From the NCBI GenBank assembly GCA_963638555.1, contig CAVHQU010000001.1, positions 169,309 through 233,308 on the forward strand: 64,000 nucleotides of DNA, in the 5' to 3' direction. The notes under the pieces are model-generated. The model saw only the letters and a list, made by a program, of their open reading frames with translations. It made no database searches and had not been told where the DNA came from. Positions 3,894 through 30,449 of this stretch are shown here, piece by piece; positions within the stretch are counted from its first letter, which is position 1; each line of letters opens with the position of its first letter. Position numbers and translations under genes: made by a program. The stretch comes from a bacterium. Its GTDB lineage: Bacteria; Bacillota_I; Bacilli_A; RFN20; CAG-826.

Positions 3894-3957
3894 TGCGCTA
3901 TCCTTGTATCTAGTGCATTATTTTTCTAAAATATCAAATAGTTTAGAGAGGTTGCTT

Positions 3958-4632
3958 ATGGATTCAATTCGTGTAATAAAGGTAAAACAAAGCGTATTTG
4001 CAAATAATAATGCAAGAGCCGCTGAAGTTAGAAAGAAGCTCAAAGAGAAAAATGTCTATCTTGTTAATTTAATGTCCTCTCCAGGAAGCGGAAAAACCAC
4101 ATTCTTGGTTGCCCTTATTAACAAATTGAAGAATGATCTTAGAATTGGCGTTATGGAAGCAGATATTGATGCTACAGTCGACGCAGAAACGATTTCAAAT
4201 AAGACAGGGGTCAAGTCAATTCAGATCCATACCTCAGGAGAATGTCATCTTGATGCTAAGATGGTCGATGACTCATTAGATGGATTTGGCGTTGATGATT
4301 TAGATTTGGTCTTCCTAGAAAACATTGGAAACCTTGTTTGTCCAGCTGAATTTGATACAGGGGCATCCTCTTCTTTCGAGTTGTTATCAATTCCTGAAGG
4401 CGATGATAAGCCTTTAAAATATCCACTTATGTTTACAGTGGCAAATGTTGTTATCTTTACTAAGATGGACGCAATCTCTGTTTTTGATTTTGATATTCAA
4501 AAAGCCGAAGAACGTATCCTTAAATTGAATCCAAACACTAAGTTCTTCCCCGTTTCTGCCAAAACTGGCCAAGGCATTGATGAATTGGCCGCTTATCTTC
4601 TTAAAGAAGTCAAAACTTATCAGGCAAAATAA
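3958..4632 (+). CDS. hypB: Nickel-insertion GTPase HypB (hydrogenase/urease accessory G3E family)
   Basis: Start moved to ATG 3958 (SD gagagg); the track ORF begins at 3868. P-loop LMSSPGSGKTT and the HypB motif ENIGNLVCPAEFD are present, with TKMD in place of NKxD. Confidence 0.85.
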   Translation: MDSIRVIKVKQSVFANNNARAAEVRKKLKEKNVYLVNLMSSPGSGKTTFLVALINKLKNDLRIGVMEADIDATVDAETISNKTGVKSIQIHTSGECHLDAKMVDDSLDGFGVDDLDLVFLENIGNLVCPAEFDTGASSSFELLSIPEGDDKPLKYPLMFTVANVVIFTKMDAISVFDFDIQKAEERILKLNPNTKFFPVSAKTGQGIDELAAYLLKEVKTYQAK

Positions 4633-4686
4633 CTACACACAAAAACTATATTTTCAATATATCTATGGATACGTTTGGAGGCAAGC

Positions 4687-5448
4687 ATGAACGCAGGTAA
4701 AAAAGCAGTCATATTTGTCGTTTCCTATTTAGGCGTCACAATTGTCGGAGGTCTTGTAATTTTTGGGTTATTCTTTAAGGCAATAGTTAATGATGTTTAC
4801 TCCAATAGATACCAAGAAACTAACTTTTCTCCATATACAAAATGGGTAAATGCTGATTATTCAACGAGAATATACTGCATGAATTGCAAATACGGTGAAT
4901 ATGGCTATACAACAATTAATGGTCAAGAGGAATTTTTTTGCTGGACGACATGTACTGGTTACAACAATACTTGCAAAAACGATAATATGGTCTTTTATTT
5001 CCCTGAACGCGATGAATCCATAAGGATGGTTGAAACGGTAAACGCTTCAAAAAATGATGAACTAACTCTCAAGCCTTATAGAGTCGATACAATAATTTCA
5101 AATAATTGGTCAGAAAAATTTTCTAAAGCAGAGTTTAACAGTGAAGATATCGATATGCGTTATTCTTTTTTGACAAAAATATACAGTCCTGAGTTAGATC
5201 TTAAATTCAAAATAAACTACTCTGAAGAAAAAAATGATGGTGGTTATAAGATGCATGCATATTTCAACAACGAATTGATAGAAGCGGCTTTTACCGACAA
5301 AACTCATATAAAATTGACCATTAACGATTCTATTAGCGAAGGATCATGGTCATTTGCGAAAGAAAACTATTATTTAAAATTTACTAAAGATGAGTTATTT
5401 GGTAAAGAAGGTGAGACGCTCACGTTCAAAACCAAAGTTGAGTATTAA
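4687..5448 (+). CDS. Hypothetical membrane-anchored protein
   Basis: GGAGG lies 6 nt before ATG 4687; the track ORF starts at TTG 4675. One N-terminal TM helix (AVIFVVSYLGVTIVGGLVIFGLFF). I recognise no domain. Confidence 0.55.
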   Translation: MNAGKKAVIFVVSYLGVTIVGGLVIFGLFFKAIVNDVYSNRYQETNFSPYTKWVNADYSTRIYCMNCKYGEYGYTTINGQEEFFCWTTCTGYNNTCKNDNMVFYFPERDESIRMVETVNASKNDELTLKPYRVDTIISNNWSEKFSKAEFNSEDIDMRYSFLTKIYSPELDLKFKINYSEEKNDGGYKMHAYFNNELIEAAFTDKTHIKLTINDSISEGSWSFAKENYYLKFTKDELFGKEGETLTFKTKVEY

Positions 5449-5449
5449 A

Positions 5450-5477
5450 AATGGTTAGCGATTATGCTAACCATTTT
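5450..5477. terminator. Shared intrinsic terminator between convergent genes
   Basis: 10-bp stem aatggttagc/gctaaccatt with a 6-nt loop and T-rich tail. Confidence 0.6.
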
Positions 5478-5481
5478 CCTT

Positions 5482-7599
5482 TTATTTTTCTACGACTATT
5501 TGTCCATCTTTTACGTCAACTGTGAACTTGTTTTTCGTATCAATCTCACCTTTGATGATTGCAGTAGCAAGTACAGTCTCAATTTTGTCTTGGATGAATC
5601 TCTTGATTGGTCTAGCACCGAAATTTGGTGAATAGGATGAATCAAGGACATATTTTCTAAGATTGTCAGTAAATTCGACGGAGTAGAATTGATTTTCAAG
5701 TCTTTCCTTGAGTTCGTTCAACATTTTATCAACGATCTTTAGTTGGACATCCTTATTTAACGGATTGAAATATACTATCTCATCAATACGGTTAAGGAAT
5801 TCAGGCTTAAATGTATGATGGAGCAAATCTTCAACCTTCGAGTTCTCTCCGTTAAGGATATATTCGCTGCCCAAATTGGATGTCATGATAATGATTGTAT
5901 TCTTGAAATCAACTAAGTGGCCTTGAGAATCAGTTAAACGACCATCATCAAGTATTTGCAAGAGAAGATTGAATACTTCAGGGTCAGCTTTTTCAATCTC
6001 ATCAAAGAGAACGATTGAATATGGATTCCTACGCACCTTTTCAGTAAGCTGTCCTCCTTCTTCATAGCCAACATAGCCGGGAGCTGCACCAATTAAACGT
6101 GATACAGAATATTTTTCCATATATTCAGACATATCAATACGGATAATGTTGTTTTCGTTATCGAAAAGGGCTTCCGCCAATGCTTTCGCTACTTCAGTTT
6201 TACCAACACCGGTAGGGCCTAAGAACATGAAGGACCCGATAGGTCTATTAGGATTTTGAATACCAGCTCTTTGACGAAGAATAGCGTTAGATACTAATTG
6301 AATGGCATTGTCTTGTCCAATGACTCTCTTTTGAAGGGTTTCCTTTAAATCAAGGACCTTCTCTTTATCTCCTTTAGAAATTCTTGATACAGGTATGCCT
6401 GTTCTTTTTGCAACAATCTTTGCAATGGATTCAGAATCAACTATTTCATCAACAAGTCTTTCCGTATCGTTGGTAGATTCGGTTATCTCTTTGATGCGTT
6501 TCTCATATTCAGGAATTGTTTGATACTGAAGTTTTGAAGCCTTTTCGAAGTTCCCTTCTTGGAAATAGTTGGCAAGTTCTACTTTTGCTTCTTCTATCTT
6601 GTTTTTAAGATCTTTTGCTTCTTTGATTTGGGCTTTCTCTTTTTGCCATTCAGCAGTTAATTTACTAGATTTATCTTTGTATTCAGAAAGTTCTTTATCA
6701 AGCTCAACTAAACGTTTCTTTGAAGAATCGTCATTTTCTTTCGTAAGCGCTACACGTTCGACCTCTAATGAGCGAATCTTACGGTTTGTTTCATCAAGTT
6801 CAGTTGGCATTGATTCAATTTCAACCTTGATTCCTGCGCACGCTTCATCAATCAAATCGATTGCCTTATCTGGCAAGAAACGATTAGTGATGTATCTATT
6901 AGATAATGTCGCAGCAGAAATGAGTGCATTATCAGTGATTCTAACGCCATGGTACGACTCAAATCTCTCTTTTAAACCACGAAGAATCGTTATTGTGTCT
7001 TCAACTGTTGGCTCTTCGATCATTACAGTTTGGAAACGTCTTTCAAGAGCGCGGTCTTTTTCAATGTATTGTCTATATTCGTTTAATGTTGTCGCACCGA
7101 TGCAGTCTATTTCACCACGAGCAAGCATCGGTTTAAGCATATTTGAAGCATCCATTGCGCCATCTGTTCTGCCTGCGCCAACGATTAAGTGAATCTCATC
7201 AATGAAAAGGACTATCTTGCCATCTGATTGTTTGATTTTATTCAGGACAGCCTTCAAACGCTCCTCAAATTCACCACGATATTTAGCGCCCGCAATAAGA
7301 GCACCCATATCAAGTTCATATATTTCTTTGTCTTTTAATGTAGCAGGGACATCGTTTTTGACGATTCTTTCCGCAAGCCCTTCTACTATTGCTGTTTTGC
7401 CAACGCCTGGTTCGCCAAGCAAGATAACGTTGTTCTTTGTCTTTCTTGCTAATATTTGTATGACCTTGCGAATTTCTTCATCACGGCCAATAACTGGATC
7501 TATTTTCCCGTTTTTTACATCCGCATTAACGTTGCGGCCAAATTTATCAAGGATGTTTTCATCTTGGGAATAGTCTTCCATTCCATTCATTTCATTCAT
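5482..7599 (-). CDS. clpB: ClpB-type AAA+ disaggregase lacking the N-terminal domain
   Basis: Two AAA+ modules ([15 protein letters not shown]; [15 protein letters not shown]) with a coiled-coil middle domain between them. At 705 aa it starts just before NBD1, as in Mollicutes ClpB. SD ggagg. Confidence 0.9.
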
Positions 7600-7659
7600 A
7601 ATTTAAAACCTCCTATTTTCAATTCCTTTAGCAGGAACACCATTATTATACTCATTCTT

Positions 7660-7686
7660 TTAGCACTCGCAAGTCTTGAGTGCTAA
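7660..7686 (-). promoter_or_regulatory. CIRCE operator (HrcA binding site) upstream of clpB
   Basis: Perfect TTAGCACTC-N9-GAGTGCTAA, about 60 nt upstream of the clpB start codon. Confidence 0.85.
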
Positions 7687-7815
7687 TTCTTGCTAAATAA
7701 TATTTCCTATCTTTAGATAGAAATTTGCTGAATAAGTAATTTATTACTTGTTTTTTTCGACATATATCGCTTTAATATTAGCGGACTGTATAGGTTTGAA
7801 AGTCGAATTGTATTT

Positions 7816-8409
7816 ATGGAAAAGAAATTAATTATCGTCAGCGCACCGCCAGCAAGCGGCAAAACATATGTATCAAAGAAATTAGCCGAATCATTGGAAC
7901 ATGTTACATATTTAGATAAAGATAGCTTAGTTCCTCTTAGCAATGTTGCATATAAGATTGCAGGTCTTCCAGTTGAAAGAGAAGGCGAATTCTTTAAAAA
8001 GAACATTCGTGATGTTGAATATGATGTCATCCTAGAGATGGCTTTTACCGCTTTGCATTATGAAGATATCGTTTTAATTAACGCTCCATTCACAAAAGAA
8101 ATACATCACCCAGAGTATATTGAAACATTAAGAAAGAAACTCGCAGAGCAATACAACGCTCACTTAGTCATTGTCTGGGTTGTTTGCGATATTAAAACGG
8201 TTAAAGCAAGAATGATCGCAAGAAACTCGGATAGAGACGTTTTCAAGATTAAGAATTTTGATTCATGGGTTAAGACGCAAGATTTCAACATTCCGACATA
8301 TCTCAAAGTTGAAAATGATCCATATTCATTAGTTATATTTGATAACTCCAATGATGAAGTATTTGCTAAATCGATGAAAGATACTGTTGCATTGCTTGAA
8401 GAGAAATAA
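7816..8409 (+). CDS. P-loop NTPase / kinase-like ATP-binding protein
   Basis: 197 aa with Walker A at the N-terminus (SAPPASGKTYVSKKLA). Size and layout resemble AAA_33/zeta-toxin-like small-molecule kinases. Confidence 0.55.
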   Translation: MEKKLIIVSAPPASGKTYVSKKLAESLEHVTYLDKDSLVPLSNVAYKIAGLPVEREGEFFKKNIRDVEYDVILEMAFTALHYEDIVLINAPFTKEIHHPEYIETLRKKLAEQYNAHLVIVWVVCDIKTVKARMIARNSDRDVFKIKNFDSWVKTQDFNIPTYLKVENDPYSLVIFDNSNDEVFAKSMKDTVALLEEK

Positions 8410-10665: not shown

Positions 10666-12447
10666 TTATTTAGATTCAACGAAGGCCGCTAATTTAGCAT
10701 TATCATAAAAATTAGCACGTTCATATTCATAGTCTGGGGTGATACCACCATCATTATCAATCATCTTTCCGTCTTTTTCATAATTAAGACGTTCGGTGCC
10801 TGACATTTGAACGATCATTCCATCGGCAGTAACACAATTTCTAACGACACATGAACCTCCGCCAGATTTTTCACCGATAATTTTAGCGGCACCTGTTGTT
10901 TTGCAAATGGTCGGGAAGAGATTGGCGCAAGAAAACGAGTACGATGAAGTCAAAGCGTAGAAATTATACTTGCCAGCAAATGAATCATTATCGTCAAATT
11001 TTCCATCAAGATTCGTATCAACATTATAAGAGAGAGTTGTAGTTGACTTAGTTGTTGGATTATCGAGGTAAATCTTAACATCTTTTGTTAAGAAACCCAT
11101 TGTTTCGATTAAAGCATCGACAGCTCCACCACCATTGAGAGTTACATCGATGACAACGTTCTCAATTTCTGAGTGCTTTTGAATTTGGCTGAAACACGAA
11201 TAGAAGATTGCAAACGTTTCAGTTGAAGTTAGAGAAGATGCGTTTTGTGGAGTGATTTTAGTTCCATTTGTTTCATAGGAATCAAGACGGATAATCGCCG
11301 TCTTATTTTGAATCGAGAAACCAGGAACATTTCCGCCAAAAGCATTTATTCTTAAGGCTCTTAATTCGTTGTATGAATTTGATAGAGTTCTAACACGTTC
11401 ACTACTTTGAACATTTCCTCTAGTAGTGTTATTAACATCCCCATAGAAAGATGAAAAGGTGCCCGTTGAAGTGTGACCATCTCCAAATACCGTAATATAA
11501 AGTTCATTGATTCCAGTCTCATAAGTACGTGTATCACGCGATTTCAAATGATCACGAACTGTTGAGTAATTTGCTTTGAGATATGTATCAAAATCAGAAT
11601 TCTTAAAGTATTTGTCATTAAAACCATAGAAGTTGTTGAAGTTGAAACAAAGGGAATTATAAGCGTATTCTGCCATTGTTGAACTCCTCTTAGAGCCACT
11701 TGAATAAGCGCCACTGTAATAGGCCTTACAGTATGAAGAGGCTACCGATTCGCCTGAAGCTGACTTTTGAGGTTTTGTGAAATACGAAGAAATTGCAGCA
11801 TAGAAATCGGTTCCATTGAAAGCAAATGGTGATGCGACAGATTCAAAAAGAGTGCTCTCAACAACGCTGTAAGGAAGATAAACGTCAGATCCATCAGCGA
11901 TTGTATCTAAATTTGAAGCGGCAAGGTTAAATGTTGTCGAGCCTGGATCGGTGAATTTGTATTTGCTTGTATCTGTCTTAATAAGTGAATTTTCTTTATC
12001 AGCCGTATCAGCTAAGCCATTTATGACAGATGATCCGCTTAAAGCTTGTATAAACTTCTCATAACTATTAAAAGTTATCGTATCTTTTTCGACATTGATG
12101 GCGATCGTGTATGTAAATTCTTTGCTAGGAAGCTCAAAAGTATATACGTTATCATCAAAATCGCTGTAATAAGAATCTGAACCGGTAAGTGCGTTTAAAA
12201 CCTCAGAAAACGAAACATAAGGAATGTCTTCATATGTTCTATATTTAAGTGTTCCTTTCGACTTTGTAACTATATCTGTTTTATCGTCGCTTAGAGTTCC
12301 GCCATATAAGTTTGCTGTTTTGACTTCGCTTAAATCAGCTGCTTTCGGGTCAGTTTTGCCGAATTGGCATGAGGTAAGTATCGATAATGCAGCGCCAGAT
12401 AAAACACAAATACTGACGAATGGTATTAATTGTAATTTCTTTTTCAT
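10666..12447 (-). CDS. Lipoprotein with S41 (C-terminal processing peptidase)-like domain
   Basis: Signal peptide with lipobox (LSILTSC). Contains VVIDVTLNGGGAVDAL and IGEKSGGGSC blocks typical of S41 peptidases. Paralog of 59419-61194. Confidence 0.6.
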   Translation of the reverse strand: MKKKLQLIPFVSICVLSGAALSILTSCQFGKTDPKAADLSEVKTANLYGGTLSDDKTDIVTKSKGTLKYRTYEDIPYVSFSEVLNALTGSDSYYSDFDDNVYTFELPSKEFTYTIAINVEKDTITFNSYEKFIQALSGSSVINGLADTADKENSLIKTDTSKYKFTDPGSTTFNLAASNLDTIADGSDVYLPYSVVESTLFESVASPFAFNGTDFYAAISSYFTKPQKSASGESVASSYCKAYYSGAYSSGSKRSSTMAEYAYNSLCFNFNNFYGFNDKYFKNSDFDTYLKANYSTVRDHLKSRDTRTYETGINELYITVFGDGHTSTGTFSSFYGDVNNTTRGNVQSSERVRTLSNSYNELRALRINAFGGNVPGFSIQNKTAIIRLDSYETNGTKITPQNASSLTSTETFAIFYSCFSQIQKHSEIENVVIDVTLNGGGAVDALIETMGFLTKDVKIYLDNPTTKSTTTLSYNVDTNLDGKFDDNDSFAGKYNFYALTSSYSFSCANLFPTICKTTGAAKIIGEKSGGGSCVVRNCVTADGMIVQMSGTERLNYEKDGKMIDNDGGITPDYEYERANFYDNAKLAAFVESK

Positions 12448-12560
12448 TGTTTTTTCTCCTATTCGTTTATCGAGCGTTATTATAAATGCAAAAAATATTT
12501 AGTCATACCTAAATATTAAATATTTAAAAATATTTTGTTTGCATCAAGCTAATTCGAGAA

Positions 12561-13262
12561 CTAAGCTTCATGTACATTTTCTTTTTTTATCGTTTTATGA
12601 ACGTCTTTTAAGGAAAGAATACAAAAAACAACAGGCACCAACGGTGCAAGATTACTCAAAGTTTCAAGAACCGAAATATAACTTTCAAAAGGCAAATAAT
12701 ATTGAGCAATACCAAATGGAACGCTTAATGTGATGAAACCAATACCAATTAACATCAAGACTTCCCAAATAAGTTTCTCCTTAGGGAAGAAAACGGTTAT
12801 TGCAAATGTCAATATCGATAAAAGAAGGCAGCCAAACTCAATAAAATATAAAATATTGCGAAGAGTAAAGGCTTCATGAAGTTTCTCGGGCAATGCAATT
12901 AACTCGGGCGTTACCATGGCACCAGCAACAACCACCCAAGCAAAAAGATAGAAAGTAGACAATCCTTGTATACCTATCAGTTCTTTTTTCTTGGCAATAT
13001 CAGCTATGCCATCAACAAAGGTAAACAAGATGATGGCAAAGATAAGTTGGATGGCTTCATAAGAGATGGCTTGGTTTAAATCAGTAAGAGCATCACCAGT
13101 GACGCTGCTTTTCTCTATTGTGTATAAGATAATCAAAGTAACGCCAAAAATAATGTGAAATATATCGAAAATAGTGAAGCCAAAGAAATTGTAATTCTTG
13201 AATGGATGTTTTTTCGTATCGTTGTCAGTTTTAGTTTTGAATTGTTCAGGATCTAGTTTCAT
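12561..13262 (-). CDS. Hypothetical integral membrane protein
   Basis: 233-aa ORF with about 6 hydrophobic helices. I recognise no domain. Confidence 0.5.
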   Translation of the reverse strand: MKLDPEQFKTKTDNDTKKHPFKNYNFFGFTIFDIFHIIFGVTLIILYTIEKSSVTGDALTDLNQAISYEAIQLIFAIILFTFVDGIADIAKKKELIGIQGLSTFYLFAWVVVAGAMVTPELIALPEKLHEAFTLRNILYFIEFGCLLLSILTFAITVFFPKEKLIWEVLMLIGIGFITLSVPFGIAQYYLPFESYISVLETLSNLAPLVPVVFCILSLKDVHKTIKKENVHEA

Positions 13263-13283
13263 AGCAATTAAGAATGATAATCC

Positions 13284-14048
13284 TTACTCGGCTTTTTTGG
13301 TAGGAAGAATATACTCATTCAAGTCATTTGCTTGATTCAAATTTCTTGTCGCAAAGTAGAGAGGATAAAAGAAAACTAAGGCGAATATTATCGTCACGAT
13401 TGAGGTGAATAATGCAGCCGGCAATTTGCTAACCGATGCAATGAATGCCGCTTCAAAAGTCGTCCCAAGCATAATAGAGAAAAGTATTCTAAGAAAGAAT
13501 TCGCCAACAACATTGACCAATAAGCCGCAAACAAGGGCAAACAACAAGCATTTAGTTGAAACAGGCATCCAAAATGATGCAATCAAGGCAATAAGCAAAA
13601 TTCCACAAAGAATTGATGAGGCAATGACAGCGGTTAATGAATAGCCAGATCCATTGGTGAGATATCCATAAAGTATCCAGCCAAAAGCAATTAAGCCGAC
13701 CCCTGTAGCGATTCCGAGCATTAACGTGCCATTAATTTTCTTTTTTAAGCAGATTCTAAAAAGCAATCCAACAACAAACCCAAAAAGGAATTTGACGATG
13801 AAACTTCTAAGATATGTATTCCATCCATATCCTAAAGCAATGTCACAAAATCCCATGCCTAAAGAGCCGGCAAGTCCACCAATAAGCGGTCCGCATAAGA
13901 GACCTGCCAATACGCAGAATAAGTTGCCTAAGTGAATTTTGCTTGTTCCTAAGGGAATCGAAATGAAGGTTCCGCCAAAGCATAAAGCGATAAATATTGC
14001 ACAATAAATGATTTTTATTAATAATGATCTTTCTTTGCTCATAATCAT
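13284..14048 (-). CDS. ECF-transporter S-component-like membrane protein
   Basis: Multi-TM. The N-terminal block IPLGTSKIHLGNLFCVLAGLLCGPLIGGLAGSLGMGFCD resembles substrate-capture (S) components. The start could instead be ATG 14042. Confidence 0.45.
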   Translation of the reverse strand: MIMSKERSLLIKIIYCAIFIALCFGGTFISIPLGTSKIHLGNLFCVLAGLLCGPLIGGLAGSLGMGFCDIALGYGWNTYLRSFIVKFLFGFVVGLLFRICLKKKINGTLMLGIATGVGLIAFGWILYGYLTNGSGYSLTAVIASSILCGILLIALIASFWMPVSTKCLLFALVCGLLVNVVGEFFLRILFSIMLGTTFEAAFIASVSKLPAALFTSIVTIIFALVFFYPLYFATRNLNQANDLNEYILPTKKAE

Positions 14049-14053
14049 TCAAG

Positions 14054-14082
14054 ATATTAGATAAGCATAATGATTAAATCAA
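14054..14082 (-). promoter_or_regulatory. Sigma-A-type promoter TTGATT-N17-TAATAT ending 5 nt before the ATG (leaderless candidate)
   Basis: Minus strand reads TTGATTtaatcattatgcttatcTAATATcttgaATG, with no SD. Confidence 0.45.
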
Positions 14083-14188
14083 GTAAATGTTTTGTAATTG
14101 TTCCATTCCATCGACATTTTTATTTTTGCTCACTAGCCAATATTTCAAGAATCATTTATTATGTAAAGGTCAGGTAAAAGAAACGTAA

Positions 14189-15919
14189 ATGTTTAGTAAC
14201 TTAATCCTCGAAAGTTCAGCAAGCAGTTCTCTGTTAGTCCAAATCTTACTAATGATCGGTGGGTTAGGTGCCCTTTTCGTTGGTATGAACATGCTCCAAG
14301 CCGCAACTGAAAAGCTCGCAACTGGAGGTCTTAAAAAATTATTTAAGAAAACCGCCAATTCAAAATTAGCAGGTGTTGGCATTGGCACACTAGCCACCAT
14401 GATTATGCAATCAAGTGGAGCTACGACTATCATGGTAGTTGGCTTTGTTAACGCAGGCGTTATGACTTTGGTTCAGGCTGCTACATATATCATGGGCGCA
14501 AATATTGGCACTACTATAACTGCTCAAATAGTCGCATTAGGCGGTTTATCATCTTCGTCTCTTCCTTTAACGCAAATCATCATTTCTTTAACTCTCGTTG
14601 GCGTCATCATGAGAATGATTTGCCACAAGAGATGGCCGAAGGTTGCCTTCGCTGGAGATATGATAACTGGTCTAGGTCTCATTTTCTTAGGTTTGAATAC
14701 AATGACAACAAATATGAGTGCTCTTCTTACAGACAATGAAGCAATCAAAAACGCACTCACGTCCCTCACCAATCCATTCCTTCTCTTGTTAATCGGTATC
14801 GTTTTAACTGCATTAGCTCAATCGTCTTCTGCTATCACTTCAATCGTTTTAGCTCTTGCAATGGCAGGTGCTGTCGTTGGTGGCAGTGGAAACGGTGTCC
14901 TTTATCTTATCTTAGGTTCCAACATCGGTTCATGTTCTACTGCGCTATTATCAGCAATAGGATCAACAACTAATGGCAAAAGAACTGCAGTCATCCACTT
15001 GTTATTCAACGTCTTTGGCTCCATTATCTTCTTTATTATTCTTATTTGCTGGCCTAACGCAATGGAAAGCACCTTAGCAAAATGGTTCCCTAATTCTCCT
15101 GCGACTCAAATTGCTATGTTCCACACTTTCTTTAATGTTGTTGTAACAATCCTTTTCTTGCCATTTACAAAATTCTTGGCTTTCTTAGCAAGCAAAATTA
15201 TTCCAGAAAAAGGCAAGAATCCAGAAGAAGATCTTCTCGATTCAAGATTCCTCGCTACCCCTGAAGTCGCCTTAACCCAAGCCATTTCTTATTATCACAT
15301 CATGGCTAAACTAGCCTTAGACGACTTAAATATGGCTTTAGATGCGTTTGTGGTAAAAGATGGTAATAAGAAGTCTCAAATTGATGACTTAGAAAACAAA
15401 GTTTTGCGTATGTCAAAAGAGCTTAGCGGATTCATCGTTCAAATATCCGCTAATGGAGTTTCGGAAGAATCTCAAAAGAGAATTTCAAGAATGCAATTAG
15501 ATATTGCCGACATTGTCCGTTTAACCGAGGTTGCAGACAATATAACAGGTTATACAAACCATGAAATTAATGATGAATTAACATTCTCAGCCGTCGTTTT
15601 TGATGATTTGAAAATAATGAAGGCAAAGATTGAAGAGATGTTTGCCAAAGTAGATAAAATCGTCGATAAACCAACATTGAATGATTTGAATATCGCCCGC
15701 AAGATGGAAGATGGGATTGATGATATGCGAACATCAATGGTCAAAGGTCACCTAAAAAGGCTTGAGAGTGGGGAATGTAAGCCTCAAAACTCAAATATAT
15801 TTATCAATTTAGTTGGCAATCTTGAAAGATGCGGGGACCATCTTAACTTTATTGCGGAACGTTCATGTAGTGATCTTCTTCCTAAAGACGAAGAAAACAA
15901 CATTACATTGCACCCTTAA
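14189..15919 (+). CDS. Na+/phosphate cotransporter family protein with C-terminal PhoU-like domain
   Basis: Duplicated Na_Pi_cotrans blocks (GANIGTTITAQ; GSNIGSCSTA) and a helical PhoU-like C-terminus. Confidence 0.8.
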   Translation: MFSNLILESSASSSLLVQILLMIGGLGALFVGMNMLQAATEKLATGGLKKLFKKTANSKLAGVGIGTLATMIMQSSGATTIMVVGFVNAGVMTLVQAATYIMGANIGTTITAQIVALGGLSSSSLPLTQIIISLTLVGVIMRMICHKRWPKVAFAGDMITGLGLIFLGLNTMTTNMSALLTDNEAIKNALTSLTNPFLLLLIGIVLTALAQSSSAITSIVLALAMAGAVVGGSGNGVLYLILGSNIGSCSTALLSAIGSTTNGKRTAVIHLLFNVFGSIIFFIILICWPNAMESTLAKWFPNSPATQIAMFHTFFNVVVTILFLPFTKFLAFLASKIIPEKGKNPEEDLLDSRFLATPEVALTQAISYYHIMAKLALDDLNMALDAFVVKDGNKKSQIDDLENKVLRMSKELSGFIVQISANGVSEESQKRISRMQLDIADIVRLTEVADNITGYTNHEINDELTFSAVVFDDLKIMKAKIEEMFAKVDKIVDKPTLNDLNIARKMEDGIDDMRTSMVKGHLKRLESGECKPQNSNIFINLVGNLERCGDHLNFIAERSCSDLLPKDEENNITLHP

Positions 15920-16419
15920 TCAAAGATGTATTCTTGGCGGTTAGAGTAACCGTCTTTTTTTAATGAAGAATCAAGGAAATTGTATTTCTTTGGCATTAGT
16001 TTTAATAAATGAAGGGACGCGTTCATTTTCTTGATTGTTTCAAGATTGATGCCTTTTCTTTTAGCAATTGAAATAAATTCGTTAGAATCTTCAGATACAA
16101 CTTCTGCAACTGCTTCTATTTGCAAAGAATGAATCGAAGAAAAACCACTGTATGGTTCATATATTGTAGCTGCGACATTCTTATTCTTTTCAAGATATTT
16201 GAATTTAAGCCCACCCTCGGAAAATAGATAGAAACATCCATCATAATAATTATATTCAATTGGAGTACACCTAACTTCTTCTCCATACCCTGTGGCTAAA
16301 GCCATCGTATTGTGATTTAAGATAAAGTCTTCAATCTTCTTAAAGAGTTCTTCTTTTTCGATCTTCTTAGATTGAGCATCTCTCTTGATCCAATATTCAC
16401 TTGCTTCCTTATAATTCAT
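15916..16419 (-). CDS. Pyridoxamine-5'-phosphate-oxidase-like FMN-binding split-barrel protein
   Basis: Start moved to ATG 16419 (MNYKEASEYW; SD agagg); the track ORF begins at 16512. Has the MALATGYGEEVRCTPIEY ... CFYLFSEGG pattern. Its 3' end overlaps the convergent gene by 4 nt. Confidence 0.6.
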   Translation of the reverse strand: MNYKEASEYWIKRDAQSKKIEKEELFKKIEDFILNHNTMALATGYGEEVRCTPIEYNYYDGCFYLFSEGGLKFKYLEKNKNVAATIYEPYSGFSSIHSLQIEAVAEVVSEDSNEFISIAKRKGINLETIKKMNASLHLLKLMPKKYNFLDSSLKKDGYSNRQEYIFD

Positions 16420-23584: not shown

Positions 23585-23686
23585 GGATTGTAAGGCCAAA
23601 TGAAAAGTATGTATAAATTAACTTATAAAAATCTTTCAATTTAACGAAATGATTTTTATTTTTCTTATGTGATATACTAATGCCGT

Positions 23687-24391
23687 ATGATAAATGTCGC
23701 TATCGTTGAAGACAACAAGCAAGATTCCGAAAGGCTCGAATCTTTCCTAGTCAAATATCAGGGAGAAAATAAAGTAGATTTTGATATTAAGAAATTTGAG
23801 GATCCTACCCCTTTCTTAAAAACATATCATTCTGATTATGATTTGATATTTTTTGACATTCAAATGCCTAATATGAATGGCATGGATGCAGCAAAAGAAA
23901 TTCGTAAAATAGATAAGAAAGTTTTAATTGTATTCATCACTTATCTAGGACAATGCGCAATACAAGGCTATCAAGTTGAAGCACTTGATTTCGTCGTTAA
24001 ACCGATTGAATATGATGAATTCAAGTTAAAAATAGAACGTGCCTTATGTAGAATTCATAAAGATGAGAAAAAATTCATAATGATCAAGCAAAGGGCAACT
24101 GAAATTAAAATTCTTCAAGAAGATATCATTTACGTTGAGTCGATGCATCATCGAACCTTCTATCACACGGCAAACGAAATATATAAAGTAACGACCCCGT
24201 TAAGTAAAATAGAAAAGATTTTGGATCAAGACATGTTTGCTAGATGCAACAATTGTTATCTCGTAAATCTAAGATATGTCACTGGCATTATTGATCACGA
24301 TTGTCAATTAGGCGACATCACTTTGCAAATCTCTCAGCCTAGAAAGAAAGAATTTCTATCTAGATTTATAGATTATATGGAGGGCAAATGA
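23687..24391 (+). CDS. LytTR-family response regulator
   Basis: Receiver domain (DLIFFDIQMPNMNGMD) plus a LytTR DNA-binding C-terminus (IIYVES..HRTFYHT; FARCNNCYLVNLRYV). An extended -10 (TGaTATACT) lies 8 nt before the ATG. Confidence 0.85.
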   Translation: MINVAIVEDNKQDSERLESFLVKYQGENKVDFDIKKFEDPTPFLKTYHSDYDLIFFDIQMPNMNGMDAAKEIRKIDKKVLIVFITYLGQCAIQGYQVEALDFVVKPIEYDEFKLKIERALCRIHKDEKKFIMIKQRATEIKILQEDIIYVESMHHRTFYHTANEIYKVTTPLSKIEKILDQDMFARCNNCYLVNLRYVTGIIDHDCQLGDITLQISQPRKKEFLSRFIDYMEGK

Positions 24392-25743
24392 TATCAACTT
24401 GGCTTAGCAATTTTCTAAACAATCTTATTCCAGGTTTATCTACACAATTTGTCATCGTTCTTTCGTATACGATAGAAATGATTGTTGCATGTTTAATATT
24501 TGGAATAAGAATCCCTAGGAGAAAAGGCTTCTTTTGGATTGTGCCTGTCTATATTGTAGGCTGTTTCCTACTAATTTTCCCTGTCTCTATATTGCGTTTA
24601 TATATAAATAATTGGAATAGATTCGGCACAGGCATTTTTCACTCGACTTACGGCTCTTTATTGATTATTGGCTATTTGTTTGCTGCCCATAAAGAAGAAA
24701 CGTATGAAACGATGCTTGATTTCGTTTCCATAGATGCTTCAACAATGTTAATTGGTAAATTCTATTCACTTCTTCTAAATATGGCAGGCAAAGATACAAC
24801 TAAATCGATGTCTTTTTTCCAAGATAGCAATAATCTAAGAGATTGGAGCATATACTGGATTTTGCATATCATTCTATACATACTCTTCGTCTTCCTTTTC
24901 TTCAATCAAAGAAGCCAATCTCTATCACACAAAGCAAAAAGAAACATCCTTGCATTAACTATTGGGTCCGTTCTTTTAATGAATATTGTTTTTTCGATAT
25001 CAAGTCCTTACGAAACGGAATCGATGGCATTAATGATAGTTATCAAACTTTTCACATGCCTTATTTGTTTATTCATTCTTTTCATCCGTGCAGGTTTGCT
25101 TAATCAATCGAAGAAAGAAAACGAAGCGGAACTCATGTATGAACTCTTTACGCAAGAAAAACAGCAATTTGATTCATGCAGAGCCTCAATCGATGTAATC
25201 AATAGAAAAACTCATGATCTTCGTCATCAATTGTCTTCCCTTGAAGGGAAACTCTCACAAGAAGAGATCAAAGAGTTAAAAGACGCAACACGTATATATG
25301 ATTCAACAATTCAAACTGGGAATGATGTTCTTGATGCAATAATATACGAAAAGCAACTACGTTTTGAAAAAGAAAACATCCACTTCACCTGCATGTTAGA
25401 TGGAAAGGCAGTTTCTTTCATTAAGCAAGAACATCTATATTCTTTGATGAATAATCTTTTGGGCAATGCCATCGAAGCAACTTCGAAACTAAAAGAGGGA
25501 AGAATCATCGATTTAACAATTAAAAAGAAAATGGGCTTCATCATCATTGAAGAGTTGAACACATTTGATGGCAAAATCTCTTTTGATGACAAAAACCGCC
25601 CAATTTCAAGCAAAAAAGATGGCCATAATCATGGCTTTGGAACAAAAAACATATCTTACGTAGTTAAGGAATATCATGGCGAAATAAAATATCAAACTCA
25701 AGACAATACATTCCGCGTCTTAATCTATTTTCCAGATAATTAA
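24388..25743 (+). CDS. AgrC/HPK10-like membrane sensor histidine kinase (GHKL ATPase)
   Basis: Overlaps the regulator gene by 4 nt. N-terminal half is multi-TM. H-box KTHDLRHQL; ATPase blocks NLLGNAIEA and GHGFGTKNI. Confidence 0.8.
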   Translation: MISTWLSNFLNNLIPGLSTQFVIVLSYTIEMIVACLIFGIRIPRRKGFFWIVPVYIVGCFLLIFPVSILRLYINNWNRFGTGIFHSTYGSLLIIGYLFAAHKEETYETMLDFVSIDASTMLIGKFYSLLLNMAGKDTTKSMSFFQDSNNLRDWSIYWILHIILYILFVFLFFNQRSQSLSHKAKRNILALTIGSVLLMNIVFSISSPYETESMALMIVIKLFTCLICLFILFIRAGLLNQSKKENEAELMYELFTQEKQQFDSCRASIDVINRKTHDLRHQLSSLEGKLSQEEIKELKDATRIYDSTIQTGNDVLDAIIYEKQLRFEKENIHFTCMLDGKAVSFIKQEHLYSLMNNLLGNAIEATSKLKEGRIIDLTIKKKMGFIIIEELNTFDGKISFDDKNRPISSKKDGHNHGFGTKNISYVVKEYHGEIKYQTQDNTFRVLIYFPDN

Positions 25744-25752
25744 AAATGTTAA

Positions 25753-25783
25753 TTTGGTTCATCTAAATTAGAGTTTGGTTCAT
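25753..25783 (+). promoter_or_regulatory. Direct repeat TTTGGTTCAT-N11-TTTGGTTCAT (21-bp register): candidate LytTR binding site
   Basis: Two perfect 10-mers starting at 25753 and 25774. A TAAAAT -10-like hexamer lies about 8 nt downstream (25792-25797). The site sits between the TCS and the lipoprotein/GH3 operon. Confidence 0.5.
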
Positions 25784-25849
25784 TAGTCTTTTAAAATGTA
25801 AGCGGTTTCTTTAATGTTTCCTCACAATCAAAATTTTGGAGGAAACACA

Positions 25850-27073
25850 ATGAAAAAGATTTTGACAATTAGTCTCCTAGCGACAATGGGCGCTTTGATG
25901 ACACTCACATCCTGTGGCGGAAGCAAGGAAAACACCGATTCATCAGCAAATGGTGCCTCTTCTGAAGAAACCGCTTCTTCTATCCAACCTGTAGTAGAAA
26001 GAAAATTGACTGGTTCATATTTAACTAGCGCTCAACTTTCTTATATGAATATGCGTCCAACATACAACTACTACACCACAAAATTCTCGTTCGAAGGCCT
26101 TGAAACATATTCAGATGGTTCTTACGTCTTCACGTTGGTTTCAATGTGCTATTCAGGTTTAAACTTACCAGAATCAGGTTCTGATGCCAGTGGATCCGAA
26201 AGAGAAAATTTTGTCAAAAAGTTCTATGGAACATATACATCTAAAACAAATGAATTAGATGATAGTATGTTAGACATCACTCTTGATATTCCTACACGTC
26301 TTACTAATGCATATAACTGTCAATATTTTGCTGATACAGCCGCCTGGACAGATGCAATGGCAACAGCCGTTTCAACAGATTCCTATGGTAACGTTTCAGA
26401 AACAAAATACACCGCTGAAACATATTTAGCGTCCCAAGCCTTCAATAAGACGACAGTTTCCGTTACAACATCTACCGCATCATTCGATTATTTCACTTTA
26501 AGAGAAGATGGCGCAGCTGATCCAAAAGTCACCGTCTCAACCGAAACATATGGTCTAACCGGTGCCTATCTTTCCCCATCAAGTTTAGCTTATAGCAATT
26601 TCCGCCCAACATATAACTACTACACCACAAGATTCGCGGAAGAGTACATCGAAACATATTCAGATGGAACATATCGCGCAGATATCATTTCTTCTATGTT
26701 CTCTGGATTAAACTTACCAGAAGAAGGAAATGATGCTAGTGGATCTGATCGTGCGAACTATATTCAAAGCTTCTATGGCAAATACGCATCCAAGACAAAT
26801 GAATTAGATGAAACCATGATTGATTTAACAATCAAATCACCAACGACAGTTAAATTAACATACGATGCTGCCTATTTCATTGATTCTGACAATTGGACAG
26901 ACGCAATGTCTAATGCAACCGCAACAACCGATAGAACAACTGGTGAGAAAACAATCAATTATAAAACTGGGGCAGAATATTTGAATGCAGTCAAATTCGA
27001 TGATCAAGAAATCTCTGTTACCACTTCAACAGCGTCATTTGATTTTATTAAATTAAGCGCTGAACTTAACTAA
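25850..27073 (+). CDS. Lipoprotein containing a tandem duplication of a ~170-aa domain
   Basis: Start moved to ATG 25850 (SD ggagg); the track ORF begins at 25814. Lipobox LMTLTSC. The repeats begin at nt 26006 and 26555 (LTGSYL..RPTYNYYTTKF..YSDGSY..SGLNLPE..DASGS..TNELD / LTGAYL..RPTYNYYTTRF..YSDGTY..). Confidence 0.75.
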   Translation: MKKILTISLLATMGALMTLTSCGGSKENTDSSANGASSEETASSIQPVVERKLTGSYLTSAQLSYMNMRPTYNYYTTKFSFEGLETYSDGSYVFTLVSMCYSGLNLPESGSDASGSERENFVKKFYGTYTSKTNELDDSMLDITLDIPTRLTNAYNCQYFADTAAWTDAMATAVSTDSYGNVSETKYTAETYLASQAFNKTTVSVTTSTASFDYFTLREDGAADPKVTVSTETYGLTGAYLSPSSLAYSNFRPTYNYYTTRFAEEYIETYSDGTYRADIISSMFSGLNLPEEGNDASGSDRANYIQSFYGKYASKTNELDETMIDLTIKSPTTVKLTYDAAYFIDSDNWTDAMSNATATTDRTTGEKTINYKTGAEYLNAVKFDDQEISVTTSTASFDFIKLSAELN

Positions 27074-27090: not shown

Positions 27091-30012
27091 ATGAAATTCA
27101 GAAAATTTAGAGGAGGTGCGGCAATTGGTGTTTGTGTTCTTTCATTGAGCACATTCGCTTCAATTCTTGCCTTTGAGAACTCTGGGCAAGTCGATATTGC
27201 CTTAGGCATCACAGGTGAGAAAAACACCAAACAAAGTGCATACTCTTCATTAGAAGAAATGCATGTCGCTGAAAAGGCAAATGAAATCCAAACGGAAGAA
27301 GAAGGTTCTGTCCTTTTCTACAATGAAAATAATGCTCTTCCATTATCTAATGCAAAGAAAGTTACTTTACTTGGCAGAACGGCTGCCGACAATATCTTCA
27401 AAGGCGGATCAGGCGGATCAACTACCACAGATGAAACTGCCACTTCCCTTTATGAAGCGTTAACTGCTCAAGGATATTCAATCAACGAAACAGTTTATAA
27501 TGCCTTAAAAGAATCACCAATCAAACGTGCTAGAGGCGATATTGGCGAAGTTCCTGCATCCTTCTACACGGATGATATGAAAAACTCTTTCAAAGAATAC
27601 GGTGATGCGGCCATCATCGTCTTGGGGAGATACTCTGGCGAGCAACAAGACTTGTGCGCTGGAGGTGACTCAGGTCAAGATAATGCGGTTGATGCCAATG
27701 GCGATCCTGTGGATTCTTCAGGTATTCGTATGCTCGCTCTTCATGATGAAGAAAGAGACATGATCAAGATGGCGGTTGAATCAAAAGCATTCTCCAAAGT
27801 CGTTGTCTTGCTTAACACTGTTAACCCAATGGAAATTGGTGAACTCAAAGGATTAGGCGTTGATGCATGTTTATGGGTTGGGATTCCTGGCTATACTGGT
27901 TTTGAAGGGGTTGCAAACATCCTTTCAGGAAAGGCAGATCCTTCAGGTCGTTTAGCTGATACATATGCTACTAACTCCTTAAGTGCGCCTGCAATGAGAA
28001 ACTATGGTTCATTTAACTGGGATAACATCACAGCTTCAGGTCAAAATAAGTACTTGGTTTATGCAGAAGATATTTATATTGGTTATAAATATTACGAAAC
28101 ACGTTACAACGATCAAATATTAGGTATCAACAATGCCACTTCAAGCAAAGGTTGCTATGCTTCCTCTTCTTCTTGGGATTATGCAGCCGAAATGGATTAC
28201 ACATTTGGCTATGGTACATCTTATGCTTCATTCACTCAAAAACTTGATTCATTAAAATGGGACAAGGACGCTCATACTGTCACCGCAAAAGTCACAGTTA
28301 AGAATGAAGGTTCAACTTCTTATACTGGCAAATCTAAGAATACTGTCGAATTATACGCTTCCCTTCCTTATGAAAAAGGCCAAGCGGCTAAATCAGCCAT
28401 TCAATTGATTGGCTATGGCAAAACAAAAGAGTTGGCTAAAGGTGAGGAAGATACAGTCACAATCACTGTTGATGATTATCTATTTGCAACATACGACCAA
28501 AACGCAACAAACGGAGCCGACACAACAAAGAAAGGCTGCTACACATTTGATGCAGGTGAATATTTCTTCGCTATTGGTGCTGATGCTCATGACGCATTAA
28601 ACAATGTTCTAGCTAAAAAAGGCAAAACAGGTCTCTTCGATGCAGATGGTAAATCTGTTTCAGGTGACGTCTCAAAGGTTGCAACTGATACTTTGGCTCA
28701 ATTGGATAACGTTACCCATGCAAAATCTCATGAGAATGAAAATGTTGTTGTTTCCAACCAGTTTGATGATATGGACATCAACTATTTCGAAGATAACGCA
28801 GTCACATATCTAACAAGAGATGATTGGAATACCTATCCAGTTCGTTATACAGGTTTATCTGCGACAGATGATATGAAAACTATCATCGATGGTCATACAT
28901 ATTCAAAACCAGCTGACGCACCAGACATCTCCGAATTCAAATATTCTCAAAAATATGATGAGACCATGATGCTAGCTGAACTCGTCAATGAGCCATATGA
29001 TTCCGATAAATGGGATACGTATATTGATCAATTAACGCCTTCTCAACTTGCCGCAATCACTGGCGAAAAGTTTGGCAACACAGGCTTAACTGACTATGGT
29101 TGCCCAGACAACTCTGCAGCCGATGGCCCAGATGGTATTCAAGCAAACACTGGCTTCTCTCATGTATGCGAAAACCTTGCAGCTTCAACATATAATGATG
29201 AATTATTGAAGAAACGTGGTGAATTCATGGCTGAAGACGGCATGTATTCAGGTCAAAACGGTGTTTATGGATTTGGTGCAAACATGCATAGAACCGTATA
29301 TGCCGGAAGAAACTTTGAATACTATTCCGAAGATATGATTCTTTCTTACCTTGCTGGCGCAGCCCAAACAAAAGCGGCCCAAGATAAAGGATTAACAACA
29401 TACGTTAAGCATTTCTGCGCTAACGACCAAGAAGTTTGGAGAAACGGTTCTTCAACAATCATGCGCGAACAAGCATATCGTCAAGGACCACTCAAAGGTT
29501 TTGAAGGCTCCTTCACCAAAGGAGAATCTCTTGGAACGATGACCTCTAACGCCCGTGTTGGCTTTAGAACAGTTTCTATGGACTATGGCACTATGACAAC
29601 TGTTCTTAGAAACGAATGGGGATTTAAAGGAACGGCCATGACCGACTCCTCTAAAGGTTCAACTCATTATCTCTATACAAAGGAATCAGTTGCAGCTGGT
29701 ATCGATCAATTTAACAACGACGAAACCAGAGGAACAACAGACATGAAAAACTATCTCATCAAGGAAAAAGATGGTTATCTTTGGAAGAGGGCAAGGGAGA
29801 TAGCCCATCACTACTTCTACACAATCTCTAGAAACTTCTGTATGTCTGGTTTATCAAAAGACACAGTTGTCGAATCAAAGACATCTTGGTGGAAAACAGC
29901 ATTAATCGCTTTAATAAGCGTTGAAGCAGTTATCACAGTCGGCTTAGCTGGCACAGCTGCCGTTGGGGGAATCCTCTCCTACAGCAAAAAAAGAAAGGAA
30001 GGTAACGAATAA
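27091..30012 (+). CDS. Glycoside hydrolase family 3 (beta-glucosidase-like), domain-permuted, with N- and C-terminal membrane anchors
   Basis: The GH3 C-terminal-type domain comes first (KVTLLGRTA..; PSGRLADTY). An Fn3-like block follows (FGYGTSYASF). The catalytic barrel blocks come last (KHFCANDQE; GFKGTAMTDS). The protein ends in a TM helix plus KKRKEGNE. Confidence 0.8.
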   Translation: MKFRKFRGGAAIGVCVLSLSTFASILAFENSGQVDIALGITGEKNTKQSAYSSLEEMHVAEKANEIQTEEEGSVLFYNENNALPLSNAKKVTLLGRTAADNIFKGGSGGSTTTDETATSLYEALTAQGYSINETVYNALKESPIKRARGDIGEVPASFYTDDMKNSFKEYGDAAIIVLGRYSGEQQDLCAGGDSGQDNAVDANGDPVDSSGIRMLALHDEERDMIKMAVESKAFSKVVVLLNTVNPMEIGELKGLGVDACLWVGIPGYTGFEGVANILSGKADPSGRLADTYATNSLSAPAMRNYGSFNWDNITASGQNKYLVYAEDIYIGYKYYETRYNDQILGINNATSSKGCYASSSSWDYAAEMDYTFGYGTSYASFTQKLDSLKWDKDAHTVTAKVTVKNEGSTSYTGKSKNTVELYASLPYEKGQAAKSAIQLIGYGKTKELAKGEEDTVTITVDDYLFATYDQNATNGADTTKKGCYTFDAGEYFFAIGADAHDALNNVLAKKGKTGLFDADGKSVSGDVSKVATDTLAQLDNVTHAKSHENENVVVSNQFDDMDINYFEDNAVTYLTRDDWNTYPVRYTGLSATDDMKTIIDGHTYSKPADAPDISEFKYSQKYDETMMLAELVNEPYDSDKWDTYIDQLTPSQLAAITGEKFGNTGLTDYGCPDNSAADGPDGIQANTGFSHVCENLAASTYNDELLKKRGEFMAEDGMYSGQNGVYGFGANMHRTVYAGRNFEYYSEDMILSYLAGAAQTKAAQDKGLTTYVKHFCANDQEVWRNGSSTIMREQAYRQGPLKGFEGSFTKGESLGTMTSNARVGFRTVSMDYGTMTTVLRNEWGFKGTAMTDSSKGSTHYLYTKESVAAGIDQFNNDETRGTTDMKNYLIKEKDGYLWKRAREIAHHYFYTISRNFCMSGLSKDTVVESKTSWWKTALIALISVEAVITVGLAGTAAVGGILSYSKKRKEGNE

Positions 30013-30449
30013 TGAATAACTACATCAAAGGGACCTTGCTTAGAAAAAGAAATATAGGCGAATGGATTACATTAGGCGTCAGCGTCTATATGTTAATCGT
30101 TGCAATCGTTTATCTTATTCTTGATGGCGGAGCAATGAAAATTCCAGATTACTCTAAAACATTAGCGTTCTGGATGTTGATTGCTGGCTCCATACTTGGA
30201 TTATCAACCGCTTTCTATGACGTTCGTTTCCTCAATTCAAGCATTACCCTAGTCTCGTTCGCCTGTTTCTCCGTTGCGGCTGGAAGACAACTCTATCTTG
30301 CCGGTTATCCAATTGCCGATTTAGCTACTGGAGTCAACTGGTTTGGCGGAAGCCTAGGTATTTACCTTGGCATGTTCATCGCGATGATGATTGGCGTTAT
30401 CGTCGAAATATTCGCATTATTCATGAAACAAAGTAAATTTGAAGACTAA
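30012..30449 (+). CDS. Small 4-TM membrane protein co-transcribed with GH3
   Basis: 145-aa ORF whose ATG overlaps the GH3 stop (TAATG). Four hydrophobic helices. Confidence 0.55.
   Translation: MNNYIKGTLLRKRNIGEWITLGVSVYMLIVAIVYLILDGGAMKIPDYSKTLAFWMLIAGSILGLSTAFYDVRFLNSSITLVSFACFSVAAGRQLYLAGYPIADLATGVNWFGGSLGIYLGMFIAMMIGVIVEIFALFMKQSKFED

Follow-up and report, generated by a model that had tools for sequence, protein, structure and literature searches.

A predicted LytTR operator ahead of a lipoprotein–GH3 operon and its counterparts in uncultured Bacilli and Clostridia

The best-known role of LytTR response regulators that work together with AgrC-like kinases is as switches in peptide quorum sensing, which control virulence, competence and the production of bacteriocins. 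The system examined here is a two-component system (TCS) of this general type, found on a 64,000-nt stretch of bacterial DNA (contig CAVHQU010000001.1, positions 169,309 to 233,308; this whole stretch is referred to as the window). It is followed by an operon for a lipoprotein, a glycosidase of the GH3 family and a small polytopic membrane protein. Between TCS and operon lie two direct repeats, DR1 and DR2, and these are likely to be the half-sites of an operator at which the adjacent LytTR response regulator (RR) would activate the lipoprotein/GH3 operon.

Described LytTR sites are direct repeats of 9–11 nt, separated by spacers of 11–13 nt. The unifying property is the layout, which is constant; there is neither a common consensus sequence (PMC4847170) nor a universal consensus for the half-site (PMC4847170, PMC6193735). 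The sites lie upstream of the −35 element (PMC5600425), at distances of 4–11 bp (PMC6193735). The association of LytTR regulators with GH3 enzymes is already known from one genome paper: in PUL7, PUL21 and PUL33 of Butyrivibrio proteoclasticus B316, LytTR regulators are found beside secreted GH3 enzymes with a C-terminal transmembrane (TM) helix (Kelly et al. 2010, PMC2914790). A literature search for LytTR systems with secreted GH3 enzymes found no operator, regulon or experiment.

The original prediction, made from the letters of the window, had linked the TCS to the operon through a LytTR site. That link is strengthened by the genomic linkage of TCS and operon, by the conservation of a 21-bp register, by a fixed promoter geometry and by further repeat pairs in related loci; the promoter detail that came with it is probably mistaken. 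The reading of DR1 and DR2 as a LytTR operator draws, in addition, on the single match to the repeat pair in the window and on the partial likeness of the half-site to described ones, and the LytTR–GH3 association remarked on independently in B. proteoclasticus (PMC2914790) also supports it.

The repeat pair and its conservation

DR1 and DR2 are identical at all ten positions. Their 11-nt spacer (ctaaattagag) becomes one of 12 nt if the repeats are read as 9-mers, and their likeness reaches further upstream, covering 19 nt (AAATGTTAATTTGGTTCAT / AAATTAGAGTTTGGTTCAT) with 79% identity. Exact copies of TTTGGTTCAT occur only twice in the 64-kb window, namely as DR1 and DR2. When the pair pattern was searched for across the window with up to three mismatches, DR1/DR2 was the sole match, compared with 0.04 expected from dinucleotide-preserving shuffles. 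No second pair with up to five mismatches was found anywhere in the window, including the region upstream of the TCS (23600–23686). The repeat had been placed correctly in every coordinate (two copies starting at 25753 and 25774, 11-nt spacer), and the 106-nt gap from the stop of the histidine kinase (HK) gene at 25743 to the ATG of the lipoprotein gene (25850) was likewise confirmed.

Compared with the AgrA-type consensus [TA][AC][CA]GTTN[AG][TG] (PMC5600425), TTGGTTCAT agrees at seven of nine positions; GTTCAT fits the GTTNRK core, and the mismatches fall on positions 2 and 3. The pentamer TTCAT is common to the window half-site and the YpdB site GGCATTTCAT (PMC4847170). Half-sites of other clades, for example TTGCGCGGT, are further from the AgrA-type consensus than that of the window.

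The lipoprotein family is a small one of 77 clusters, all of them from uncultured Bacilli or Clostridia in gut, rumen and digester samples. Eleven loci came from exact protein look-up, 30 from scanning genomes with a lipoprotein alignment, and 32 non-redundant loci (designated by L numbers) were analysed. Gene content was assigned by tblastn with the five window proteins; linkage refers to presence in the 8 kb that were fetched. In 31 of the 32 loci the GH3 gene comes immediately after the lipoprotein gene, the exception being a truncated contig. A LytTR RR and an HK with an HATPase_c_5 domain are linked to this gene pair in 30 of the 32, in metagenome-assembled genomes of both Bacilli and Clostridia, and the RRs of the linked loci are 36–83% identical to that of the window. 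The placement of the TCS varies: it is upstream and divergent in 17 loci, upstream and co-directional in seven (including the window clade), and downstream and convergent in six. The outer flanking genes are unrelated from one arrangement to the next. Linkage between TCS and operon has therefore outlasted rearrangement, which points to a functional unit.

Conservation of the repeat register was assessed in a 140-nt stretch ahead of each lipoprotein start (−170 to −30), by recording the best 10-nt direct repeat for every period from 12 to 30. At period 21, a direct repeat matching at 8/10 positions or better is present in 22 of the 32 loci; at every other period, the corresponding number is between 0 and 6. 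Period 21 is the best one in 15.2 of the 32 loci (ties split), and the mean best score at this period is 7.91, as against 5.88 ± 0.17 in shuffled sequences, with 0 of 200 shuffles reaching 7.91.

The half-site sequence is lineage-specific, and the architecture is constant. Half-sites take the form TTTGGTYCAT in the window clade and TTTGCGTCGC / TTTGCGCCGT in L007 and L014; they are of the GTTGCGCGGT type in L022, L023 (which has three copies), L024, L026 and L039, and of the ACAATTTTTGC type in L019, L020 and L031. In the window clade, L001 and L006 have near-perfect copies of both repeats: DR1 is TTTGGTCCAT in both, and DR2 is TTTGGTTCAT in L001 and TTTAGTCCAT in L006.

A scan of metagenome contigs with TTTGGTYCAT-N11-TTTRGTYCAT, aimed at the regulon, was uninformative: it returned at least 120 stretches, mostly environmental by contig name and including several tandem arrays; among the matches listed, none carried a homologue of the five genes and none resembled the window. 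In three of these stretches (L080, L084 and L091, also apparently environmental by name), which are unrelated to the locus, the pattern recurs every 42 bp in tandem arrays.

Each locus was also scanned with the half-sites of its own lineage, and the additional pairs found have promoters of similar geometry downstream. In L024, a pair at 12004 is followed by TTGAAA-16-TATAAT and by genes for a 471-aa protein and a GH78 α-L-rhamnosidase (12004–16051). A pair at 5288 in L019 likewise precedes a GH78 rhamnosidase gene (5288–7867), and pairs in L031 (950 and 7641) stand ahead of a paralogous anchored GH3 and another lipoprotein. An identical pair is found at 7539 in L026, followed by TTGAAA-17-TATACT and a second gene cluster. 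Judging from these sites, the regulon in relatives seems to consist of extracellular glycosidases. L022 and L024 harbour an opposite-strand pair ahead of the divergent RR gene, which suggests autoregulation. Across the sites in L024, L019, L031 and L026, a gene for an uncharacterised 400-aa protein is also among those that such pairs precede.

Promoter layout, cre box and competing explanations

In nearly all lineages the proximal repeat is followed by 5–6 nt, a −35 element, 16–18 nt and a −10 element, with 27–30 nt between DR2 and the −10. Near-consensus promoters are present in Clostridia loci, for instance TTGAAA-17-TATAAT in L024, TTGAAG-17-TATAAT in L022 and TTGAAA-18-TATAAT in L026. The predicted position of the repeats relative to −35 and −10 is typical of an activator and agrees with that of published LytTR sites (PMC5600425, PMC6193735).

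The original prediction had assigned the −10 of the window to the hexamer TAAAAT. This hexamer is indeed located at 25792–25797, 8 nt past DR2, but it occupies the −35 position of the other lineages, and in L001, which is 82% identical and has an intact operon, it is replaced by CCTGGT. In relatives, near-consensus hexamer pairs begin 5–6 nt past the proximal repeat, and in the window the weak pair TTTAAA/TAATGT begins 6 nt past it; TAAAAT as −10 would break this layout. A −10 just 8 nt past the proximal repeat would also be at odds with activation. TAAAAT is the less likely choice, and TAATGT is probably the −10. Positions T1, A2 and T6 of this box are constant in four close loci (TAATGT in the window, L006 and L003; TAACGT in L001); the −35 position reads TTTCCT in L001 and TTTATA in L006. 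Transcription is predicted to start at about 25824 ± 3.

The spacer between the two predicted elements contains a perfect match to the catabolite-responsive element (cre) consensus WTGNAANCGNWNNCW, in the form used in PMC8359418 and PMC9598941. The window as a whole has four cre matches, compared with 1.49 expected. Cre-like boxes with at most one mismatch are present in 15 of the 32 homologous upstream regions (1.7 ± 1.2 when shuffled, maximum 6), and perfect boxes in four (0.1 expected). Their position varies by clade; they lie in the −35/−10 spacer in the window clade and over the −10/start region in L007, L014 and L018. A cre in either position would be expected to repress. The operon is thus probably under dual control, by TCS-specific activation and by general catabolite repression. 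In L003, two cre-like boxes are found at 5905–5965, ATGTAAGCCTTTTCA across the DR2 position and ATGTAAGGGCTTTCT.

The following sequence of events can be proposed. The kinase, activated by some signal, would phosphorylate the RR at its presumed phospho-acceptor; two RR molecules would then bind DR1 and DR2 on one face of the helix and recruit RNA polymerase to the weak promoter, with a start near 25824. This promoter would drive expression of a lipoprotein at the cell surface, an extracellular GH3 enzyme anchored in the membrane and the small membrane protein. When a preferred sugar is available, CcpA bound at the cre would shut the promoter.

Several observations weigh against this scheme. 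A clear 21-bp repeat is missing in 10 of the 32 loci, among which the L008 group (L008, L009 and L015) has a repeat with a 15-bp period only (ACATTTTTTG / ACCGTTTTTG). Close-clade loci are 78% identical across the whole intergenic region; the resolution of the footprint is low, and such a degree of identity cannot single out the repeats, so that the argument leans on distant lineages. In the same clade, conservation of the cre/−10 block equals or exceeds that of the repeats, and DR2 is degenerate in L003 (63% lipoprotein identity). Conservation of the repeats and of the RR both track phylogeny and are hence partly dependent evidence. The promoter hexamers of the window clade are weak (TTTAAA-16-TAATGT in the window), and the order TAAAAT as −10 followed by the cre can also be read, in the manner of L007 and L014. 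Finally, no terminator-like structure was found between the HK and lipoprotein genes, and read-through from the TCS promoter could therefore add to operon expression.

If TAAAAT were the −10 after all, DR2 would lie inside the core promoter, and an RR bound at the repeats would block the polymerase, working as a repressor or anti-activator. This is unlikely, even though TAAAAT matches a −10 better than TAATGT does, L006 has TATAAT at the same position, and a −10-like hexamer runs directly into a cre-like box in L007, L014, L016 and L010, as TAAAAT does in the window. The CCTGGT of L001 lacks the essential A2 in front of an intact operon. The spacing of 27–30 nt from DR2 to the −10, seen in about 15 other lineages, lands on TAATGT when it is applied to the window; no third repeat that could bring back the usual geometry is found 21 bp upstream of DR1, and published LytTR pairs sit upstream of the −35 (PMC5600425, PMC6193735).

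It is distinctly unlikely that read-through from the TCS promoter accounts for most of the operon's expression, with CcpA exerting control at the cre and the repeats being minor or vestigial in this lineage. The repeat architecture persists in loci where the TCS is downstream or divergent and read-through is impossible; the window has two perfect repeats, and L001 and L006 have near-perfect ones. In favour of such a scheme are the lack of a terminator-like structure, the cre/−10 block, which in the close clade is better conserved than the rest of the intergenic region, and the decay of DR2 in L003; against it, the hairpin that buries the ribosome-binding site (see below) would, if anything, hamper translation from read-through transcripts. 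Direct repeats are also used by regulators of other families, such as the OmpR/PhoB type, and the region is AT-rich, with 22 one-mismatch copies of the 10-mer TTTGGTTCAT in the window compared with 11.9 expected. That the repeats are bound by an unlinked regulator, or reflect chance or neutral duplication, is nonetheless very improbable: the register is specific to 21, with no enrichment at 10–11-like multiples or at other periods from 12 to 30, a LytTR RR accompanies the lipoprotein–GH3 pair in 30 of the 32 loci, and the chance expectation of an exact pair is far below 0.04 per window. The preferred reading remains that DR1 and DR2 would serve as an activating operator for the adjacent RR.

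Genes and RNA structure of the locus

The features of the locus are collected in Table 1. Domain and TM analysis agrees with the gene calls of the original prediction, namely a LytTR TCS, a lipoprotein with a duplicated domain, a GH3 enzyme and a small membrane protein.

Table 1. Genes and predicted regulatory features of the locus, in window coordinates.
Feature	Position	Strand	Details
LytTR response regulator (RR), 234 aa	23687..24391	+	Pfam Response_reg E 8.7e-17, LytTR E 7.5e-15
Sensor histidine kinase (HK), AgrC-like HATPase_c_5 (GHKL) class	24388..25743	+	Pfam HATPase_c_5 E 5.9e-22
DR1, distal direct repeat, predicted LytTR half-site	25753..25762	+	TTTGGTTCAT
DR2, proximal direct repeat	25774..25783	+	TTTGGTTCAT; 21 bp start-to-start from DR1
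Predicted −35, TTTAAA	25790..25795	+	6 nt past DR2; overlaps TAAAAT (25792-25797)
Predicted CcpA operator (cre), ATGTAAGCGGTTTCT	25796..25810	+	Perfect match to WTGNAANCGNWNNCW; spans −35/−10 spacer
Predicted −10, TAATGT	25812..25817	+	28 nt past DR2
Hairpin, TGTTTCCTC with GAGGAAACA	25815..25847	+	Arms 25815-25823 / 25839-25847; Shine-Dalgarno GGAGGA (25838-25843) buried
Lipoprotein, 407 aa, first operon gene	25850..27073	+	Lipobox LTSC at Cys22; β-rich domain of unknown function, in two tandem copies
GH3 glycosidase, 973 aa	27091..30012	+	Pfam domains in reversed order: GH3_C, Fn3-like, GH3_N
Polytopic membrane protein, 145 aa, conserved partner of the GH3 gene	30012..30449	+	Start overlaps GH3 stop

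The RR gene, which carries the LytTR domain, ends 1.4 kb upstream of the repeats. From its place in the receiver motif FFDIQMP, Asp57 is the presumed phospho-acceptor. In NCBIfam, the RR shows weak likeness to LytR, BtsR and AgrA, each below the cut-off (57 vs 246 bits for BtsR). The HK has a polytopic N-terminal membrane domain with at least five hydrophobic segments in residues 17–241, and carries H-box and N-box motifs (HDLRHQL and NNLLGNAIEA, respectively); the start of the HK gene overlaps the stop of the RR gene. In the window, the neighbours of the TCS are a CDF transporter gene upstream and the lipoprotein/GH3 operon downstream. In the L008, L009 and L015 loci (3761–5822), the HK gene is opposite in strand to the RR gene, with an overlap of about 70 nt at the RR 3′ end.

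Among the operon products, the lipoprotein has no match in Pfam, and tblastn of the lipoprotein against a plasmid collection gave no match. The GH3 enzyme has an N-terminal signal or anchor and a C-terminal TM helix at about residues 934–964. The 145-aa membrane protein could not be assigned to a family; its relatives include tblastn matches in L001–L018 and a homologous 147-aa open reading frame in the Clostridia-type locus L024 (E 1e-10). A sugar transporter is not among the conserved genes of the module.

The hairpin in front of the lipoprotein gene, which buries the Shine-Dalgarno (SD) sequence, has a ΔG of −15.9 kcal/mol and a z-score of −3.05, and its anti-SD arm TGTTTCCTC is conserved in L001, L006 and L003. 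With a start near 25824, the 5′ arm would be carried by TCS read-through transcripts only, and the hairpin could hold these transcripts untranslated. A search of 25650–25950 against Rfam gave a noise match only (E 0.77), and no known riboswitch or leader was found there. The same region contains one half of a perfect 12-nt inverted repeat, AAGCGGTTTCTT at 25800–25811 in the cre region, with AAGAAACCGCTT at 25965–25976, around codons 39–42 of the lipoprotein gene. This pairing is part of the minimum free energy fold of 25790–25990 (z −3.5). L006 has its own matching variant (CCCTTTCTTT / AAAGAAAGGG at +81), seemingly a compensatory change, and the inverted repeat is absent from L001 and L003.

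Relation to known LytTR systems

Taken together, the predicted operator, promoter and cre provide a concrete wiring diagram for an unstudied carbohydrate-response circuit. Its significance lies in the pairing, across many uncultured Firmicutes of the gut and rumen, of Agr-type hardware and operator layout with glycosidases that are extracellular (GH3, joined by GH78 in relatives). The lineage-specific half-sites also form a natural series for studying how the DNA specificity of LytTR regulators changes. More speculatively, and with considerable doubt, the system might be a non-peptide branch of the AgrC/AgrA type that senses a glycoside or glycan, or its cleavage product, with the lipoprotein and/or the small membrane protein as extracellular co-sensors in a feed-forward arrangement with GH3. 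If this were true, a kinase with almost no extracellular domain would be aided by a tandem β-barrel lipoprotein and/or a small membrane protein. It would also mean a widespread, undescribed system of glycosidase control in gut and rumen Firmicutes, extending to GH78 rhamnosidases in relatives, and a circuit that RNA structures, by burying the ribosome-binding site, would shield from TCS read-through.

In composition, the TCS resembles AgrC/AgrA (Staphylococcus aureus P2/P3), ComD/ComE and PlnB/PlnC-D, in that a polytopic HATPase_c_5 kinase is combined with a LytTR regulator. The operator predicted here is also like theirs, with direct repeats of about 9–10 bp just upstream of a putative −35; the spacer is 12–13 bp in those systems (PMC5600425) and 11–12 here. 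The differences concern partners and targets. The conserved partners here are a lipoprotein, a GH3 enzyme and a small membrane protein, and the predicted target is a glycosidase operon instead of bacteriocin, competence or virulence genes. Genes for a pheromone precursor or for its processing and export (AgrB- and ComAB-type Pfam families) were not found in the genes called for the fetched loci, which were not searched specifically for small open reading frames. Unlike the autoinducing Agr, Com and Pln systems, the window has no repeat pair upstream of the TCS. The cassette therefore lacks two defining features of peptide quorum sensing, namely pheromone/export genes among the conserved neighbours and, in the window, an autoregulatory site.

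YpdA/YpdB-yhjX and BtsS/BtsR-btsT of Escherichia coli are similar in that a LytTR regulator serves a small nutrient-linked regulon, and the YpdB site consists of the 10-mer GGCATTTCAT in direct repeat, with a layout like that of the window pair and likewise TTCAT at its 3′ end (PMC4847170). The E. coli kinases, however, are of the LytS type (PMC4847170), whereas the kinase here matches only HATPase_c_5 in Pfam, and the targets are transporters there and, by prediction, extracellular enzymes here. The LytTR Regulatory Systems HdrRM and BrsRM (PMC6193735) have repeats 11–13 bp apart that lie 4–11 bp upstream of the −35, the geometry also predicted here; in contrast to the RR described here, their regulators have no receiver domain, are held by a membrane inhibitor instead of being phosphorylated by a kinase, and are autoregulatory. 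A further parallel is the CcpA–cre control of glycoside-utilisation operons in Firmicutes, with a perfect WTGNAANCGNWNNCW match in the predicted promoter and enrichment of such boxes in homologous promoters; clades differ here in where the cre sits in the promoter (spacer, as against −10/start in L007 and L014).

A possible counterpart in gene content is found in B. proteoclasticus B316, where, as here, a GH3 enzyme with a C-terminal TM helix is encoded beside a LytTR regulator. The B316 report (PMC2914790) is an annotation-level remark that describes no operator, promoter or regulon. As compared with these described systems, the site is very probably a canonical LytTR operator, ordinary in kind, and belongs to an uncharacterised but widespread module, its layout being found again in dozens of uncultured gut Firmicutes.
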